From assembly GCA_963729715.1 (NCBI GenBank), contig CAVSPA010000007.1:192001-256000 (forward strand): 64,000 nt of DNA. The letters run 5' to 3'. The notes beneath the pieces were generated by a model. The model did not search any database and had not been told where the DNA came from. It saw only the letters and a list, made by a program, of their open reading frames with translations. The stretch is from an uncultured delta proteobacterium (lineage in GTDB: Bacteria > Desulfobacterota > Syntrophia > Syntrophales > UBA2185). The position numbers were made by a program, and so were the translations under genes. This document shows positions 34,588-40,444 of the stretch, piece after piece; position 1 is the stretch's first letter, and the number at the start of each line of letters is the position of its first letter.

Positions 34588-34611
34588 TGGTGGGGATGAG
34601 GGGGATCGAAC
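34588..34611 (-). repeat. att site (distal copy of the tRNA-Ala 3' end)
   Basis: TGGTGGGGATGAGGGGGATCGAAC matches 40369-40392 at 23/24. Confidence 0.9.
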
Positions 34612-34686: not shown

Positions 34687-34754
34687 TTACTGGGTTCTTC
34701 TGATATCGACATTAGATTTTTTCATAAAATAAATCAAGATCAGAAATAAAAAAG

Positions 34755-36116
34755 TTTGGGGTATGCACTTGACTCAAGTGACCACAATATATTGTAGTGG
34801 CAAATAAGCGGTCCCCTCTTTAATCATTGCCCATTAATGATGCGCGATGCCTGGTCAGGCAAAGTTATCATCCTGCTTGTCCTGTCCTTCACCTGATAAA
34901 TCACAATCTTATTCATGTTCGCAAAATCTAATACAACGGCAAGCAGATCACCGTTGGGAGAGACAGCTTGAGACCATATCAGTGTTGCGTGGAGATGTGT
35001 GATGCGCCGATGGTTTCCATCCGATGAATATTGGAAGAATTGCCCCCAATCGGCCGATCCGTCTGGCTTATAACCTTGTGCCTCAAAAATAAGGACTGAA
35101 CCGTCGGCACTCAATGTTGGTCCGCAGGAATATTCAGACCCCGCAACATAGTCTTTAAACTTTTTTTCGTAGTCAGGCATGATAATATACGGTCTAAGCT
35201 CTTTTTCGTTTCCATGCATTACGTAGATTTGGTTCCCTTTGTACTTTGATTTAAGGTCTTTATACATCATTTCGGTAGCTGCAGGGAGAACACCTGTAAA
35301 AGTTCCTGTATAAGAGAAGGGGGTATCACCCCAAAAAATGAATGTCTTGTCATCCGGAAAATAATATGGCTTTGACATCTGGTAAAATTTGAATTGAGTC
35401 AGACGAGTTTCCAAACCGGTTTCCACATCCACCTCATAGACGTCATAATCCGCAACTGGCGTGAGTCCGCTTGTTCTCTTCTTGTCTGCACGGGCGAAGA
35501 TAATCTTCCTGCCGGAGTGGGAAAAAGAGGGATACACCTTAAATCCTGTTGTATTTGTGATTTTCCTTACGTTCTTTCCGTCTGGATCCATGACGGCTAT
35601 CTGCCAATAACCGGGCTCCTGTTCATGTCCAGTGTGTGGTATTATTTGGAAAACGATACGTTTCCCATCGAAAGAATATTGTGCATGGCTCCATTCTTCT
35701 CCAATTGGTGATCGATAGGCGCTTAGCTCAGCAGTCTCCAGATCATACACATGAATCATCCATGGCCTGCCACCATGGCCGCGGTCAAAGAGAATCTTTT
35801 TGCCGTCAGGCGAAAAACTTATTCCTCTTATAAAATCCTGCTTTCCCTTATCCATAGTCGCACATCCTATATGTGTTGGTAAAAATAAAAAAGTAACGAG
35901 AACGAAACATAAAAAGCACGGCCTTTTATCAATTGATTTTTTCCTTTTGACTTTTCTCATGCCGCCATCCTTTGGAATATGCCTTCTTCTCACAAATACG
36001 CTGCACCGGTTTCCTCAGTGGAAAATTGTCTTAAACTCATCAAGTGATTTGGGCTTCTGTTTCATATGCGACAATACTACATCTTGTAGTCACTGGAGTA
36101 AAGTGCATACCCCAAT
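34755..36116 (-). mobile_element. Non-autonomous IS1595-like cassette carrying a passenger gene
   Basis: 46-bp terminal IRs (38/46 identical), 8-bp TAAAAAAG duplication, decayed transposase-like N-terminus at 36065. Confidence 0.7.
34824..35960 (-). CDS. TolB-like (PD40) beta-propeller putative lipoprotein
   Basis: Repeated SPDGK/SFDGK/SHSGR/SADGS/SPNGD blades; hydrophobic signal ending IGC. Confidence 0.8.
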   Translation of the reverse strand: MRKVKRKKSIDKRPCFLCFVLVTFLFLPTHIGCATMDKGKQDFIRGISFSPDGKKILFDRGHGGRPWMIHVYDLETAELSAYRSPIGEEWSHAQYSFDGKRIVFQIIPHTGHEQEPGYWQIAVMDPDGKNVRKITNTTGFKVYPSFSHSGRKIIFARADKKRTSGLTPVADYDVYEVDVETGLETRLTQFKFYQMSKPYYFPDDKTFIFWGDTPFSYTGTFTGVLPAATEMMYKDLKSKYKGNQIYVMHGNEKELRPYIIMPDYEKKFKDYVAGSEYSCGPTLSADGSVLIFEAQGYKPDGSADWGQFFQYSSDGNHRRITHLHATLIWSQAVSPNGDLLAVVLDFANMNKIVIYQVKDRTSRMITLPDQASRIINGQ

Positions 36117-36270
36117 TAAAAAAGTATTAGTCCAGGGGAAGGGTCTTCCCCTGGGTAGTCGTGTAAGAGCAAGAAATGTTTTAGCGTGATCCAGTTTCAT
36201 CCTTGACAATATAACGTTTGTATAATACATGAATGTTCAATATTATAAAAGTACAAAAGTGAGGACTGCG

Positions 36271-36537
36271 ATGAGAAGGCTGAAACAATACGGGATACAA
36301 CTGGAAGAGCAAGTTATCGTGCGGATCGATAGACTGGCGAAGAAACTAAATCAGCCAAGAAGTCTGGTAATGAGAAATTTAGTATTAGGCGGACTGAAAG
36401 ACATGGAATTTCTTCATAAGACCGGGATTATTGACGCAGTGGTTTTTTCTGATAAGATAATGAACAAGGTTAAGAGCGCATTATTAAAGGGGAAACTTGT
36501 ATTAGATGAAAATGACGAACTGAAAATAGAAAAATGA
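36271..36537 (+). CDS. Ribbon-helix-helix (CopG-like) regulator
   Basis: YGIQLEEQVIVRIDRLAKKLNQPRSLVMRNLV pattern; GAGG RBS. Confidence 0.7.
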   Translation: MRRLKQYGIQLEEQVIVRIDRLAKKLNQPRSLVMRNLVLGGLKDMEFLHKTGIIDAVVFSDKIMNKVKSALLKGKLVLDENDELKIEK

Positions 36538-37280
36538 ATTAATATGCATTTTTTTCTTGACAGGTATAATGTATTGATATATAGGACTTTCAATATATCA
36601 TTTAACTTCACATTTATCATTTAACTACTCCCCGGCACAGCGGAACAACATGTTCGCCTAACGAAGAAATGAAGTTTTGCAGTTTATGATTTAACTACCT
36701 GGCGATAACGCTGCATGCCCGTAACCAGCAGTCAGATGCTTTCCCTAAAGATATGGCTGCCATGACATCCGGTGATAATTCATTTATTGCCTCAAGGGAA
36801 GTGCGTCCGGAATTTTTCATTCATGATAATTTTGGATGCTTGCAGTTGCGGGGAAGTGAAGGTCATTTTATTCCTTCATCCCGTTCGATGAATGTGCTCG
36901 ACCAGGCGTTTACGATCTCCACACGATCGCATGCTCCGGGAGCACGGCACATTAAAAATAATCTATTCACAAAACATTGTCACTGAAAGGACCCTTCCAG
37001 GGGAAAGCATTCTTGTTCCCTCTGAGGGGCAATTATCTTTCTCCTGGCCGATTGAACATTAACGAAGAAAGGAGAAAGAAAAATGGCTACACATTCTGCT
37101 TGGAAGAAAATCAGCGGAAAAGAACGAGAGAAGGTTTCAAGCCAGTTGAAGAAGCCTTCGAGGACATGAAAAAGCAAGATTGCATGATCATCGATGCAAT
37201 GGACATTAAAGATCTCACCAGTGTCATTCAATTTTAACATCTCAGAAACCTGAACAAACAAAAAAGTTAAACAGTACATC

Positions 37281-37507
37281 GTGAGGAGGATCATCCTCAC
37301 AGCGAGGCGGGATAGTGTGGAATCCCGATGAGCGCCTTTTATCATTTTAACTCGGATATCGTTTAACTTCGACGTGGCTGAACGAGAGTCACGAAACGGC
37401 GAAATCCGTTTCTTTGCTAACGCACGAAGGGCGGTACAAAGAGACGGATTTAAGGGTTGCTATTCACGTTGAGAAAACGACGGGGTCGTGGTCTCAGGAC
37501 GGCAATC
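37281..37507 (+). ncRNA. Candidate structured non-coding element upstream of the recombinase-alpA operon
   Basis: Five hairpins in ~230 nt; several stem mismatches are G-U compatible on the + strand. Confidence 0.5.
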
Positions 37508-37638
37508 AAACAACAAACCTCACATACATTTAACAATTTTTTCTTTCTCAGATTACAGGGTCTATAAGGCAGCAGCCATTCCTTTTGTTACGTATAGGAA
37601 AGGTTGTCAGTGGGACAACTATGCCTTGAGAGGTGCAC

Positions 37639-38670
37639 ATGAGAAATTTTGGGGTTGGAAAAAATCTGGATAATTTAATTGTTCGCAAGATCGCCGAGCA
37701 TGTATGTTCCGCGCGGGGTAACGGCACGGCATCGGAGAATAAGATTGTCTCCGCCTTAAAGGATTTCGCCGGCTTCCTCCGTTCCGAATACCAGATCAGA
37801 GACCTGCAAAAGGTGACCCAGGAACACTATAACGCATACGCCGATAATCTGAAGATGGAACTGGAGAACGGAGAAAAGGAATCGTCAACGACGTCAAGTT
37901 ATATCGCTTTGATCAACTCCATCTTCGAGGTTTACGGCAGTAGCAACCATATATCTGCAAAGGAATATGGAATCGCACGCGGACATCATTATGGCAATGT
38001 CGATAAATCCGCATCCGACGAGGTATATAAGGCTGTACTGAACGAACTCAGAGAGCGGTTCTCGGAAACAGACGATATAAAATACCGAGCACTCGCGCAT
38101 TCCATCACATTGCAAAGAGACGGCGGATTGCGGTTTCGGGAAAGCACGCAGATCAAGATCCACAATAATGACTTTACAGATAACACAGTATCTCTACAAC
38201 GTGGTGACGGCGTGAAGAACGGCCAGCCGCGCGAATTCCAGGTCCGGGATATCTCCGCATTTCTAAAAGCTCAAGAGTTTGTGCGTGCACATGCCCATTG
38301 GTTCGAAAGAGGTTCATTGATACCCTCGGACATGAACTACAATGAATATCGGGATTTTGCCTATAACACATTGCGCAGCATAAACGAGAGCATCGGATCT
38401 ACGCAGGGGTTTCATGCGTTCAGGCACTCGTTCGCCCATGAAAGCTATACTTCGAAATGGGAAGAAATGACAGGGCGTGAAGTAAAGTGTCCCGTTGAGG
38501 TTGGAAAGTTCGGCAATGAGTGGCGGGAATATGCGGCATCGGAAACTGGCCTCTCGAAAGAGGAAGTCAGAAAGCTGGACAAGGAAATACGTCTCGCCGT
38601 TGGCGAGGAACTTGGGCATCACCGAATCGACATCACGAATGCCTATCTCGGAGGCCATCATGGCAGGTAA
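37639..38670 (+). CDS. Second tyrosine recombinase (Integrase_1-type integrase-domain protein)
   Basis: GLRFRE, KNG, HAFRH, ELGH and AYLG give a complete R-K-H-R-H-Y set; MRNFG start with GAGAGGTG RBS. Confidence 0.88.
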   Translation: MRNFGVGKNLDNLIVRKIAEHVCSARGNGTASENKIVSALKDFAGFLRSEYQIRDLQKVTQEHYNAYADNLKMELENGEKESSTTSSYIALINSIFEVYGSSNHISAKEYGIARGHHYGNVDKSASDEVYKAVLNELRERFSETDDIKYRALAHSITLQRDGGLRFRESTQIKIHNNDFTDNTVSLQRGDGVKNGQPREFQVRDISAFLKAQEFVRAHAHWFERGSLIPSDMNYNEYRDFAYNTLRSINESIGSTQGFHAFRHSFAHESYTSKWEEMTGREVKCPVEVGKFGNEWREYAASETGLSKEEVRKLDKEIRLAVGEELGHHRIDITNAYLGGHHGR

Positions 38671-38703
38671 TGAGATGTTGATATTTGACTCGATGGAGGA
38701 AGC

Positions 38704-38931
38704 ATGCAAAAAAAAACAAATCAGCAGTTAAGCGACTTACCGCAAATAGGCTTACTAAGGCTCTCGCAAGTGCTTCTATTCATTCCCGTCTCTCCTTCAA
38801 CATGGTGGGCAGGATGTCGAGATGGCCGGTTTCCTAAACCTATTCGGTTATCAAAGCGCGTAACAGCGTGGAAGGCTGGAGATATTCGTGCATTGATCGA
38901 AGGACATACTGATTTTTCAGAAAAAGGATGA
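38704..38931 (+). CDS. alpA: AlpA family regulator/excisionase-like protein
   Basis: LRLSQVL, STWWAG, GRFPKPIRL and TAW motifs. Confidence 0.92.
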   Translation: MQKKTNQQLSDLPQIGLLRLSQVLLFIPVSPSTWWAGCRDGRFPKPIRLSKRVTAWKAGDIRALIEGHTDFSEKG

Positions 38932-38969
38932 TGACCCCGGACCTCTTTCATAAAACCAACCCAACTATC

Positions 38970-40187
38970 TTATCCCTTCACCGCCTTGAACGGTACCACC
39001 ACGGCCCCGGCCTTCAACCCGTCCAGATAATCAGCCCACGTCTGCATCATCTTCCGGCGTTTGGCAAGGTGGGCAGTCCGATTGTAGGCCCGTCCGTTCG
39101 GATCTCTCACAGCATGTGCCAGCTGATGTTCTATGTAGTCCGGCCTCACCTGCAGGACTTCATCAAGAATCGTTCGTGCCATTGCTCGGAATCCGTGCCC
39201 GGTCATGGTGTCCTTGTAGTATCCCATGCGGCGCAGAGCAGCAAGTATTGCGTTATTGGACATTGGCCTTGAAAATGATCGCGCTGAAGGGAATACATAG
39301 CGACCGGCACCTGTGAGGGGTTGCAGCTCTCGGAGAATTTCAACAGCCTGATGTGACAGGGGTACAAGGTGGGGCTCTTTCATTTTCATCTTGTGCGCCG
39401 GAATATTCCAAGCGGCTTCATCAAGGTCAATTTCCGCCCACTCTGCATGTCTCAGTTCCCCGGGACGGACAAAAAGCATCGGCGCAAGACGCAAAGCGCA
39501 CTTCACAACAAAATGCCCCTGGTAACCGTCTATGGCTCTCAGAAGGGGCGCCACTTCTTTGGGATCGGTTATCGCTGCATGGTGTCTTTCATTTGGTTGT
39601 GGCAATGCTCCTCTTAGATCGGCTACCGGGTCACGCTCTGCCCTTCCCGTAGCAACAGCATATCGGAAAATCTGACCAAGCAGGCCTCGCATCCTGTGCG
39701 CCGTTTCCAATGTCCCCCGGCTTTCGATTCGGCGTAAGACTGCCAGTAATTCAGGTGCCTTCAGTTTTTTGATCGGGCGTGTGCCAAGCCATGGGAATAA
39801 ATCTCGTTCCAAAGCACTTAAGAGTTTCTCGGCATATCCTGGCGTCCAGGTGGGAGTAAATTTTGTATGCCATTCACGGGTTATGACTTCGAACGTTTCT
39901 GTTTCCGAGGTCTCTGCCTGTTTCTGGGCCTTGCGGACGGCGCCGGGATCGATGCCGTGGGCTATCTGCCCTCGGGCTTCATCACGTCTTTGCCTGGCAT
40001 CGGCAAGGCTGATTTCAGGATAGGTCCCAAGGGCAAGCAGTTTTTCTTTTCCATCGAAACGATATTTCAGTCTAAAGTATTTCCCTCCCTGTGGAGTAAC
40101 CAAGAGGAAAAGACCGTCACCATCAAATAATTTTTTCTGCTTACCTGACGGCTTAGAAGTACGAATCTTTATGTCGCTCAGTGCCAT
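38970..40187 (-). CDS. P4/CP4-type integrase with arm-binding N-terminal domain
   Basis: DGDGL, LGTYPEISLADAR, RPGE, HGFR, QLAH and AYNR motifs. Confidence 0.97.
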   Translation of the reverse strand: MALSDIKIRTSKPSGKQKKLFDGDGLFLLVTPQGGKYFRLKYRFDGKEKLLALGTYPEISLADARQRRDEARGQIAHGIDPGAVRKAQKQAETSETETFEVITREWHTKFTPTWTPGYAEKLLSALERDLFPWLGTRPIKKLKAPELLAVLRRIESRGTLETAHRMRGLLGQIFRYAVATGRAERDPVADLRGALPQPNERHHAAITDPKEVAPLLRAIDGYQGHFVVKCALRLAPMLFVRPGELRHAEWAEIDLDEAAWNIPAHKMKMKEPHLVPLSHQAVEILRELQPLTGAGRYVFPSARSFSRPMSNNAILAALRRMGYYKDTMTGHGFRAMARTILDEVLQVRPDYIEHQLAHAVRDPNGRAYNRTAHLAKRRKMMQTWADYLDGLKAGAVVVPFKAVKG

Positions 40188-40368: not shown

Positions 40369-40444
40369 TGGTGGAGATGAGGGGGATCGAACCCCTGACC
40401 TCGGCATTGCGAACGCCGCGCTCTCCCAGTTGAGCTACATCCCC
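40369..40444 (-). tRNA. tRNA-Ala (anticodon CGC)
   Basis: 76-nt cloverleaf GGGGATG...CATCTCCACCA with G3:U70, CGGCG-TTCGCAA-TGCCG anticodon arm and GTTCGA T-loop. Confidence 0.97.

Follow-up and report, generated by a model that had tools for sequence, protein, structure and literature searches.

Organisation of the island and its relatives

The window (the whole stretch of DNA that was analysed, 64,000 nt) contains an island of 5.8 kb inserted in a tRNA-Ala gene; the 3' end of this gene (40369-40392) has a copy at the opposite boundary. The region shows the following genes and boundaries:

34588-34611, no strand: att repeat of 24 nt, 96% identical to the 3' end of the tRNA, the other island boundary
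34824-35993, minus strand: cargo gene encoding a PD40/TolB-like beta-propeller protein, with 51-bp inverted repeats at 34756-34806 and 36065-36115
36132-36154, plus strand: perfect 10-bp hairpin at the left edge of the module common to the relatives
36229-36537, plus strand: gene encoding a ribbon-helix-helix (RHH)-like protein (weak match to Pfam RHH_1, below the cut-off), a candidate accessory factor
36557-36562, plus strand: candidate promoter TTGACA, just before the conserved block and kept in five of the six relatives covering the site
36593-37510, plus strand: the whole conserved, hairpin-rich non-coding block of about 920 nt, which starts with the first TATCATTTAACT repeat pair (36596-36626)
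37639-38670, plus strand: gene encoding a PF12835 tyrosine-recombinase-like protein; the ORF runs from GTG 37633 and ATG 37639 is the likely start
38704-38931, plus strand: gene encoding an AlpA-family protein
38970-40187, minus strand: gene encoding a P4-like three-domain tyrosine integrase
40369-40444, minus strand: tRNA-Ala(CGC), the integration site

The cargo region (34744-36125), whose 51-bp inverted repeats start with TTGGGGTATGCAC and are flanked on the outside by an imperfect direct repeat of 12-14 nt, resembles a transposase-less cassette, and no copy of it was found in the other loci examined. In the window this cassette takes the place of a non-coding stretch of 110 nt, ACCTGGCAA...CTGAAT...CAGCTAA, which is conserved to the left of the module in three relatives (L008:1000-1115, L062:2410-2531 and L063:2240-2357). 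No solved relative of the RHH protein was found. A homologue with 51% identity is encoded elsewhere in the genome, beside a MOBF relaxase and a TrwB-type coupling protein. At a contig end, the region G000:C5:745000-751606 (L165:13097-19300) contains a MOBF (TrwC) relaxase-helicase, a TrwB-type coupling protein and two RHH-like genes, and is a second mobilizable element. The VirB4-like family PF19044, the one family searched on the 19 contigs of the genome, gave no match and only this MOBF relaxase and coupling protein pair was found, so no helper was assigned to the island.

The closest named relatives of the island belong to Syntrophales/Syntrophaceae genomes, with 80-84% protein identity, and none of the papers listed by a literature search on integrative mobilizable elements of Syntrophales names this order. 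In an order-wide search the protein was found in 10 of 301 genomes and the DNA in five of 301. The recombinase gene and the DNA upstream of it move together, and the integration module swaps between relatives: L004, L006 and L056 show the same integrase and AlpA at tRNA-Ala, and L003 (tRNA-Glu) and L008 (tRNA-Pro) contain the element with no match to that integrase and AlpA. Since the element is present in these last two loci, AlpA is not its partner. The pairing with AlpA made in the initial annotation is thus incidental: AlpA, which we take to be the likely excisionase, goes with the P4-like integrase, and the element is also found at other tRNAs.

The same genome contains a second copy at a tRNA-Pro on contig C4, in which the RHH gene and the whole block are kept, ending right after stem 5, and the recombinase gene is absent. 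Its stem 4 contains a mismatch, and this copy (G000:C4:450025-451537, L159) may have decayed. After stem 5 it is fused to an integrase-like ORF, of which the 3' portion is present, and an insertion of 150 nt within the copy holds a CCCCGTGCTTCCGCACGGG hairpin twice. On the same contig (G000:C4:683441-683495, L164), a lone CCAGGGGAAG/CTTCCCCTGG edge hairpin adjoins a broken integrase-like sequence.

Folding and conservation of the non-coding block

The part of the block next to the recombinase gene shows the following structures:

37272-37371, plus strand: 5' module, formed by stem 1, stem 2 and the tandem TATC(A/G)TTT(T)AACT repeats at 37340-37368
37281-37300, plus strand: stem 1, GTGAGGA/TCCTCAC, read in the sequence
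37308-37328, plus strand: stem 2, CGGGAT/ATCCCG with a GTGTGG loop, read in the sequence
37373-37393, plus strand: stem 3, CGTGGCT/AGTCACG, the least conserved stem (83%)
37402-37451, plus strand: stem 4, a 15-bp inverted repeat with the core GTTTCT (37408-37413)/AGAGAC (37440-37445)
37452-37507, plus strand: 3' part, formed by a TATTCACG motif (37461-37468), stem 5 and its enclosing helix
37470-37496, plus strand: stem 5, a CGAC-GGG-GTCG hairpin enclosed by GGTTGC (37455-37460) and GCAATC (37502-37507)
37572-37608, plus strand: a further hairpin before the ribosome-binding site, with the only compensatory pair in alignment A4

The five stems in series and the helix enclosing stem 5, as first described, are all found in the sequence at these positions, and three of the stems contain one G-T pair each. 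The extension of stem 2 by AGGCG/CGCCT was not kept; most relatives read GAGCACC or GACGCGG there. The plus strand of 37270-37520 (251 nt) has a folding energy of -84.5 kcal/mol (z -4.25), a value that no shuffle out of 200 reaches, so that the comparison with shuffled controls that had been proposed for this element came out in its favour. The minus strand of the same fragment is nearly as unusual (z -4.07), and for this reason the strand cannot be picked by folding energy alone. The fold excess lies in the 3' half (37395-37515, z -5.70), and the 5' half (37268-37400) is within the shuffle range (z -1.01; its energy is reached by 30 of 200 shuffles). With Rfam 15, tRNA is the sole match at gathering score in the whole window; in 36400-39100 the 4227 models, at E up to 10, gave nothing credible and one chance miRNA match.

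Among 14 close relatives, 99.1% of the cells in 54 pairs are paired, and slid controls pair 38-52%. One-sided changes that keep the pair are found in 13 pairs, five of them in the helix enclosing stem 5, and all 13 pass through G-U on the plus strand, a count biased towards G-U because the structure was derived from the same sequences on that strand. No compensatory (two-sided) changes were found in the five stems among these 14 relatives. When stems are defined by Watson-Crick pairs on both strands, the element shows five G-T against six A-C (10 full-length rows) and the upstream block 19 against 11. The earlier argument that the G-T pairs favour a single-stranded fold of the plus strand thus carries less weight than was given to it: the one-sided changes agree with it, but the Watson-Crick-defined test in the element does not. 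The RNA consensus fold is -67.0 on the plus strand and -47.2 on the minus strand, and the plus strand is also the more stable one as DNA (-46.1 against -39.6). These data support a conserved fold leaning to the plus strand and fit RNA and single-stranded DNA alike, a limit of such data that is also stated in PMC5737381.

The extent of about 230 nt initially given to the element is too narrow. The conserved block covers about 920 nt (36593-37510) with around 89-96% identity across 12 relatives, to which recombination among copies could contribute; across the same relatives the recombinase gene shows 79% (62% at third codon positions) and the fragment 37561-37632 shows 70%. The whole 926 nt fold at z -2.57 (20 shuffles only). 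Three ORFs of the block, 77, 86 and 121 aa long, are frameshifted in relatives and were for this reason not accepted as genes, and matches to the whole block in phages amount to one weak match (E 0.08). The -10 box located 17 bp from TTGACA is good in L008, L062 and L159 and poor in the window, and a promoter scan is at chance level (8 against 5.4 +/- 2.6). Among the RNA runs, one contains 5% of the words, and four runs gave scattered contigs of 100-260 nt with a depth of 2-6, which fall on the RHH gene, the non-coding block and AlpA, none of them across the whole element. Since these data are contigs, they are silent on strand and level.

The element is composite and contains two modules of different distribution, so the five stems do not form one unit, as had been supposed: the 5' module also occurs in the absence of the recombinase. 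Stems 1 and 2 with the tandem TATCATTTAACT repeats are present as two tandem copies on contig C17 of the same genome, with no recombinase. When 150 genomes of the order were searched with a model of the 5' module, built partly from these C17 copies, four gave a match, and the four belong to a single genus; three new places were found in G107 and G120; G107 shows the 5' module and no match to the recombinase. In C17, G107 and G120 the 5' module ends part or all of an operon encoding ArdC-like, DUF6094 methylase and SNF2 proteins and is followed by a terminator-like hairpin; the position of stem 3 is taken by an intrinsic-terminator-like hairpin in the other elements bearing the module. The C17 region (G000:C17:1-22600; L184, L171) is a co-oriented operon with two SSBs, two Gp3-like genes, an ArdC-like gene, a DUF6094 methylase and an SNF2-type helicase, and among the 27 C17 ORFs scanned there is no relaxase or secretion gene. 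Genes such as SSB and ArdC are described as typical of conjugative leading regions, with folded Frpo/ssi signals (PMC11541004). The 5' module shares with Frpo/ssi the proximity to SSB, ArdC-like and methyltransferase genes and a single-strand fold, but its stems do not recreate a -35/-10 pair, and it lies at the 3' end of an operon before a terminator-like hairpin instead of upstream of a gene. The module is a separate conserved structure to which nothing in Rfam corresponds, the C17 and C4 copies also giving nothing credible. No match to the module was found in plasmids; the tandem-repeat pattern gave three viral matches, none clearly the module, and one match in 401 genomes of the phylum, which is that of the window itself. 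The tandem repeat was also considered as a boxA, but the rRNA leader of the genome has no such repeat and this reading was dropped; stem 2 of the C17 copy as compensatory by a shifted register was rejected.

The PF12835 protein and the stem 4 repeat

The protein encoded downstream of the block has 343 aa and scores 25.1 bits with PF12835 (cut-off 23) and its catalytic set, R167, K195, H261, R264, H329 and Y338, is invariant in 42 aligned sequences. The predicted model (pLDDT 92.5) shows a two-domain fold with XerH and an integron integrase as best matches, and also matches Cre. In a plasmid collection, a Salmonella protein of 321 aa shows 32% identity over 303 columns (E 7e-38) and carries R162, H247, R250, H251 and Y319. 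These are the residues listed for MpsA of SGI1 (Kiss 2019, PMC6414798), and the Salmonella protein is therefore considered of MpsA type; its record also shows a 98-aa ORF after this gene and two overlapping small ORFs before it, like S021/S022. MpsA is described as an atypical relaxase (PMC6414798), PF12835 is listed in AtollGen as a transfer-related, relaxase-like signature (PMC10484663), and MOB_M relaxases are reported to be frequent on chromosomes, to have an integrase nearby in 96% of cases and to be often labelled as integrases in annotations (bioRxiv 10.64898/2026.01.13.699239). The island shows a separate integrase near the PF12835 protein, as reported for MOB_M relaxases. From its sequence, the PF12835 protein is likely to be a relaxase of the MpsA/MOB_M type. 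No homologue of MpsB was found in the island by tblastn at E up to 1, and MpsB matches 46 other loci. In viral contigs no relative of the protein was found (154 pattern matches, none confirmed).

When the published coordinates of the SGI1 oriT are mapped onto a related record (L136:5938-6062), the mapping being our inference, the resulting 125 nt form three stem-loops, in agreement with the published IR3, IR2 and IR1. By this mapping IR3 corresponds to CCCCGTCTCTGT...ACAGAGACGGGG, the longest stem-loop, and stem 4 of the window reads CCGTTTCTTTG...CAAAGAGACGG. Stem 4, with GT(C/T)TCT...AGAGAC, would thus be the equivalent of IR3 of the SGI1 oriT. A profile of nine oriT regions of the SGI1 clade gave no match on the element (its best match in the island, E 0.37, lies elsewhere), so that the likeness to the SGI1 oriT is confined to the short core. 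The TATTCACG/stem 5 part stands in the place of IR2 and IR1 of SGI1 and has no detectable sequence similarity to them. IR1 is reported as essential in SGI1 and the deletion of an IR3 arm, the left one by our mapping, as lowering transfer 40-fold (PMC6414798). The location is also comparable: in the accounts of SGI1 (PMC6414798) and pIGRK (PMC8152469), oriT is placed directly before the relaxase gene.

Conservation of structure upstream of homologues, which had been proposed as a check, was found for stem 4. The pattern, chosen after the data had been seen, required a repeat of 9 bp or more around AGAGAC, and it was scored in those homologue loci that have 700 nt or more of upstream sequence. 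When the loci are clustered at 90% identity, 22 of 59 clusters show the repeat upstream of the gene; at 70% they are 14 of 40, and at 50% eight of 25. None of 59 genes and none of 46 downstream regions contains it, and the mean over 30 shuffles is 0.13. The other 37 of the 59 clusters show no qualifying repeat, and some of them have a mismatched left arm or the right arm alone. The two deep branches of the protein tree, a quick tree that serves here just to show how widely the motif occurs, both contain the repeat. Among 19 loci picked by hand, Watson-Crick pairs occupy 212 of 228 stem positions, the flanking positions show up to four pair types, and the spacer between the cores ranges from 7 to 61 nt. 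One position of the left-arm core is tolerant (C in 14, T in two and A in three), and it is the position of the G-T pair of stem 4. The variable spacer points to recognition as a hairpin, either an extruded cruciform or a single strand, and not as a duplex site of fixed spacing. In a relative with 59% protein identity, stem 4, TATTCACG, a CGAC-nnn-GTCG hairpin and the enclosing helix are kept in a largely changed sequence (z -3.42).

Proposed role of the element and alternative readings

The element is probably the oriT region of a small integrative mobilizable island, in which the predicted MpsA/MOB_M-type relaxase would recognise stem 4 as a hairpin. The integrase and AlpA would excise the island from tRNA-Ala as a circle, the relaxase would bind the stem 4 core, one strand would be nicked in or just 3' of stem 4 (with the TATTCACG/stem 5 part as candidate), and this strand would exit via the secretion system of a helper element, to which the enzyme would be delivered. 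In the weakest step, the 5' module and the upstream hairpin array would fold on the single strand and help to prime second-strand synthesis or early expression; an extra transcript across the region, as in SGI1, may also be produced. A priming aid would be needed because a relaxase that forms a 3'-phosphotyrosine leaves no free 3'-OH. This consequence of such chemistry is described by Nowak 2021 (PMC8152469), where single-strand origins on both strands are proposed. The 5' module may thus act as a candidate single-strand origin. A more specific version is unlikely as a whole: an MpsA-type relaxase free of MpsB would nick an attC-like hairpin, the portable 5' module beside it, shared with unrelated elements that bear SSB and ArdC genes, would prime the second strand, solving the reversed polarity, and the position of the nic region in SGI1-type elements would be indicated by the invariant AGAGAC arm.

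The initial annotation placed the element in an uncharacterised system, and this does not stand: the protein is a homologue of MpsA/MOB_M-type relaxases, stem 4 matches IR3 of the SGI1 oriT, and the locus is not a new class of system. Of the two roles then offered, a folded single-stranded DNA origin fits the evidence best; an RNA partner has one precedent, the sgm-sRNA of SGI1. With mobSGI1 (as described in PMC6414798 and PMC9299015) the locus shares a homologous enzyme (32% identity, same catalytic residues), a long hairpin-rich non-coding region upstream of it, the GTCTCT...AGAGAC repeat (IR3), a candidate sigma-70 promoter about 0.8-1.1 kb upstream facing the gene, and a separate integrase and excisionase. 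It differs in the 5.8-kb island with no MpsB, tra or rep genes found, MpsB being essential in SGI1, in the distance of the repeat from the start codon (190 nt, against about 400 in SGI1), in its sequence, where nothing similar to IR2, IR1 or the sgm core could be detected, and in the RHH gene, the extra 5' module, the tRNA target and the Syntrophales-type relatives, which are not Gammaproteobacteria. The locus would work like mobSGI1 and falls outside it by MpsB, IR1/IR2 and the sgm core. With the MOB_M group (TcpM, MobK and MpsA; as described in bioRxiv 10.64898/2026.01.13.699239 and PMC8152469) it shares the tyrosine-recombinase fold, an integrase neighbour on the chromosome and, with its predicted oriT, the location in the first upstream intergenic region; MobK and TcpM are also without MpsB (PMC8152469). 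The MOB_M survey (bioRxiv 10.64898/2026.01.13.699239), in its accessible part, covers six well-studied species and does not describe this lineage.

That the hairpins work mainly as RNA is possible but doubtful, and it is compatible with the oriT reading: a transcript of about 920 nt from the 36557 promoter would give a structured RNA aiding the assembly or delivery of the transfer complex, like sgm-sRNA. In SGI1, a transcript of 650-700 nt that crosses oriT towards mpsA is reported to yield sgm-sRNA, its 3' part being essential (PMC9299015), and in the island conservation begins just behind the candidate promoter, stops after stem 5 and is higher in the block than in the gene. The 13 one-sided G-U changes, the lower plus-strand consensus fold and the z-score of the 926 nt agree with such a transcript, but the five stems show no compensatory pairs among the 14 close relatives, the unbiased strand test is even in the element (five against six), the -10 box is poor in the window, and the G-T pairs also favour one strand as single-stranded DNA. 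Moreover, a profile of the sgm core of the SGI1 clade (nhmmer) has no match in the island, and the functional core of sgm-sRNA is reported to exclude oriT (PMC9299015), yet stem 4 is an oriT-type part. The int-alpA RNA motif, raised at the outset as a possible identity, is extremely unlikely, as is a chance cluster of palindromes. An integrase and AlpA are indeed nearby, but alpA is not adjacent, the element is tied to the PF12835 gene, and neither the window at gathering score nor 36400-39100 at E up to 10 shows a match to this motif, which we take to be one of the 4227 Rfam 15 models; folding and conservation are far from random.

Stem 4 as an attC-like site for recombination or resolution, with strand exchange that would, for example, resolve circle multimers or capture cargo, is quite unlikely. 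The complete catalytic set, the two-domain fold closest to XerH and the integron integrase, and the cargo that varies among relatives to the left of the module agree with such a site, and the variable spacer and the one tolerated core mismatch resemble features of attC. However, each element has a single site at a fixed upstream position, the whole genome contains one 15-bp repeat with this core at the threshold used, and the closest characterised homologue is needed for transfer, with the matching repeat being part of its oriT. That the excised circle replicates from this region, the enzyme acting as a nicking Rep and the hairpins serving as double- and single-strand origins, is very unlikely. 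Single-strand origins typically have hairpin arrays, no rep gene turned up in the island, and the element is multicopy in some relatives, G156 showing four matches to the recombinase; but two small plasmids with a homologue encode a separate Rep as well, the tyrosine-recombinase chemistry is described as blocking the 3'-OH for rolling-circle priming (PMC8152469), and SGI1 has a separate rep/oriV (PMC8409611).

If the oriT reading holds, the island would be a minimal, distant version of these systems (5.8 kb, no MpsB found), and the oriT feature surviving family-wide would be a single hairpin whose AGAGAC arm is invariant and whose spacer is free. MpsA-type relaxases are common and often mis-annotated as integrases, and even in SGI1 the nic site itself is reported as not found (PMC6414798). 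The stem 4 hairpin gives a specific substrate for testing and a DNA signature for finding such islands. Particular to this locus are the minimal island and the portable 5' module.

Other features were observed next to homologues of the PF12835 protein. In 22 loci (L071:1329-1727 and related, by tblastn), an ORF encoding a helical protein of 130 aa is found directly upstream of the recombinase gene instead of a downstream MpsB; it shows no Pfam match and no alignment to MpsB. The homologue of L148 (G045:C1:428360-429400) contains one in-frame TGA. About 500 nt upstream of the recombinase gene, L075 shows CRISPR-like regular GTTTTTGCCCT(T/C)TA(T/G)AGTTGCTTTCAAAC repeats with unique spacers. The Methylococcales-type loci L043, L044, L046, L049 and L132 show another structured block before the gene, ACACCCACG...CTCACCRTTGCGAGAA...GTCC, which is a candidate clade-specific RNA.
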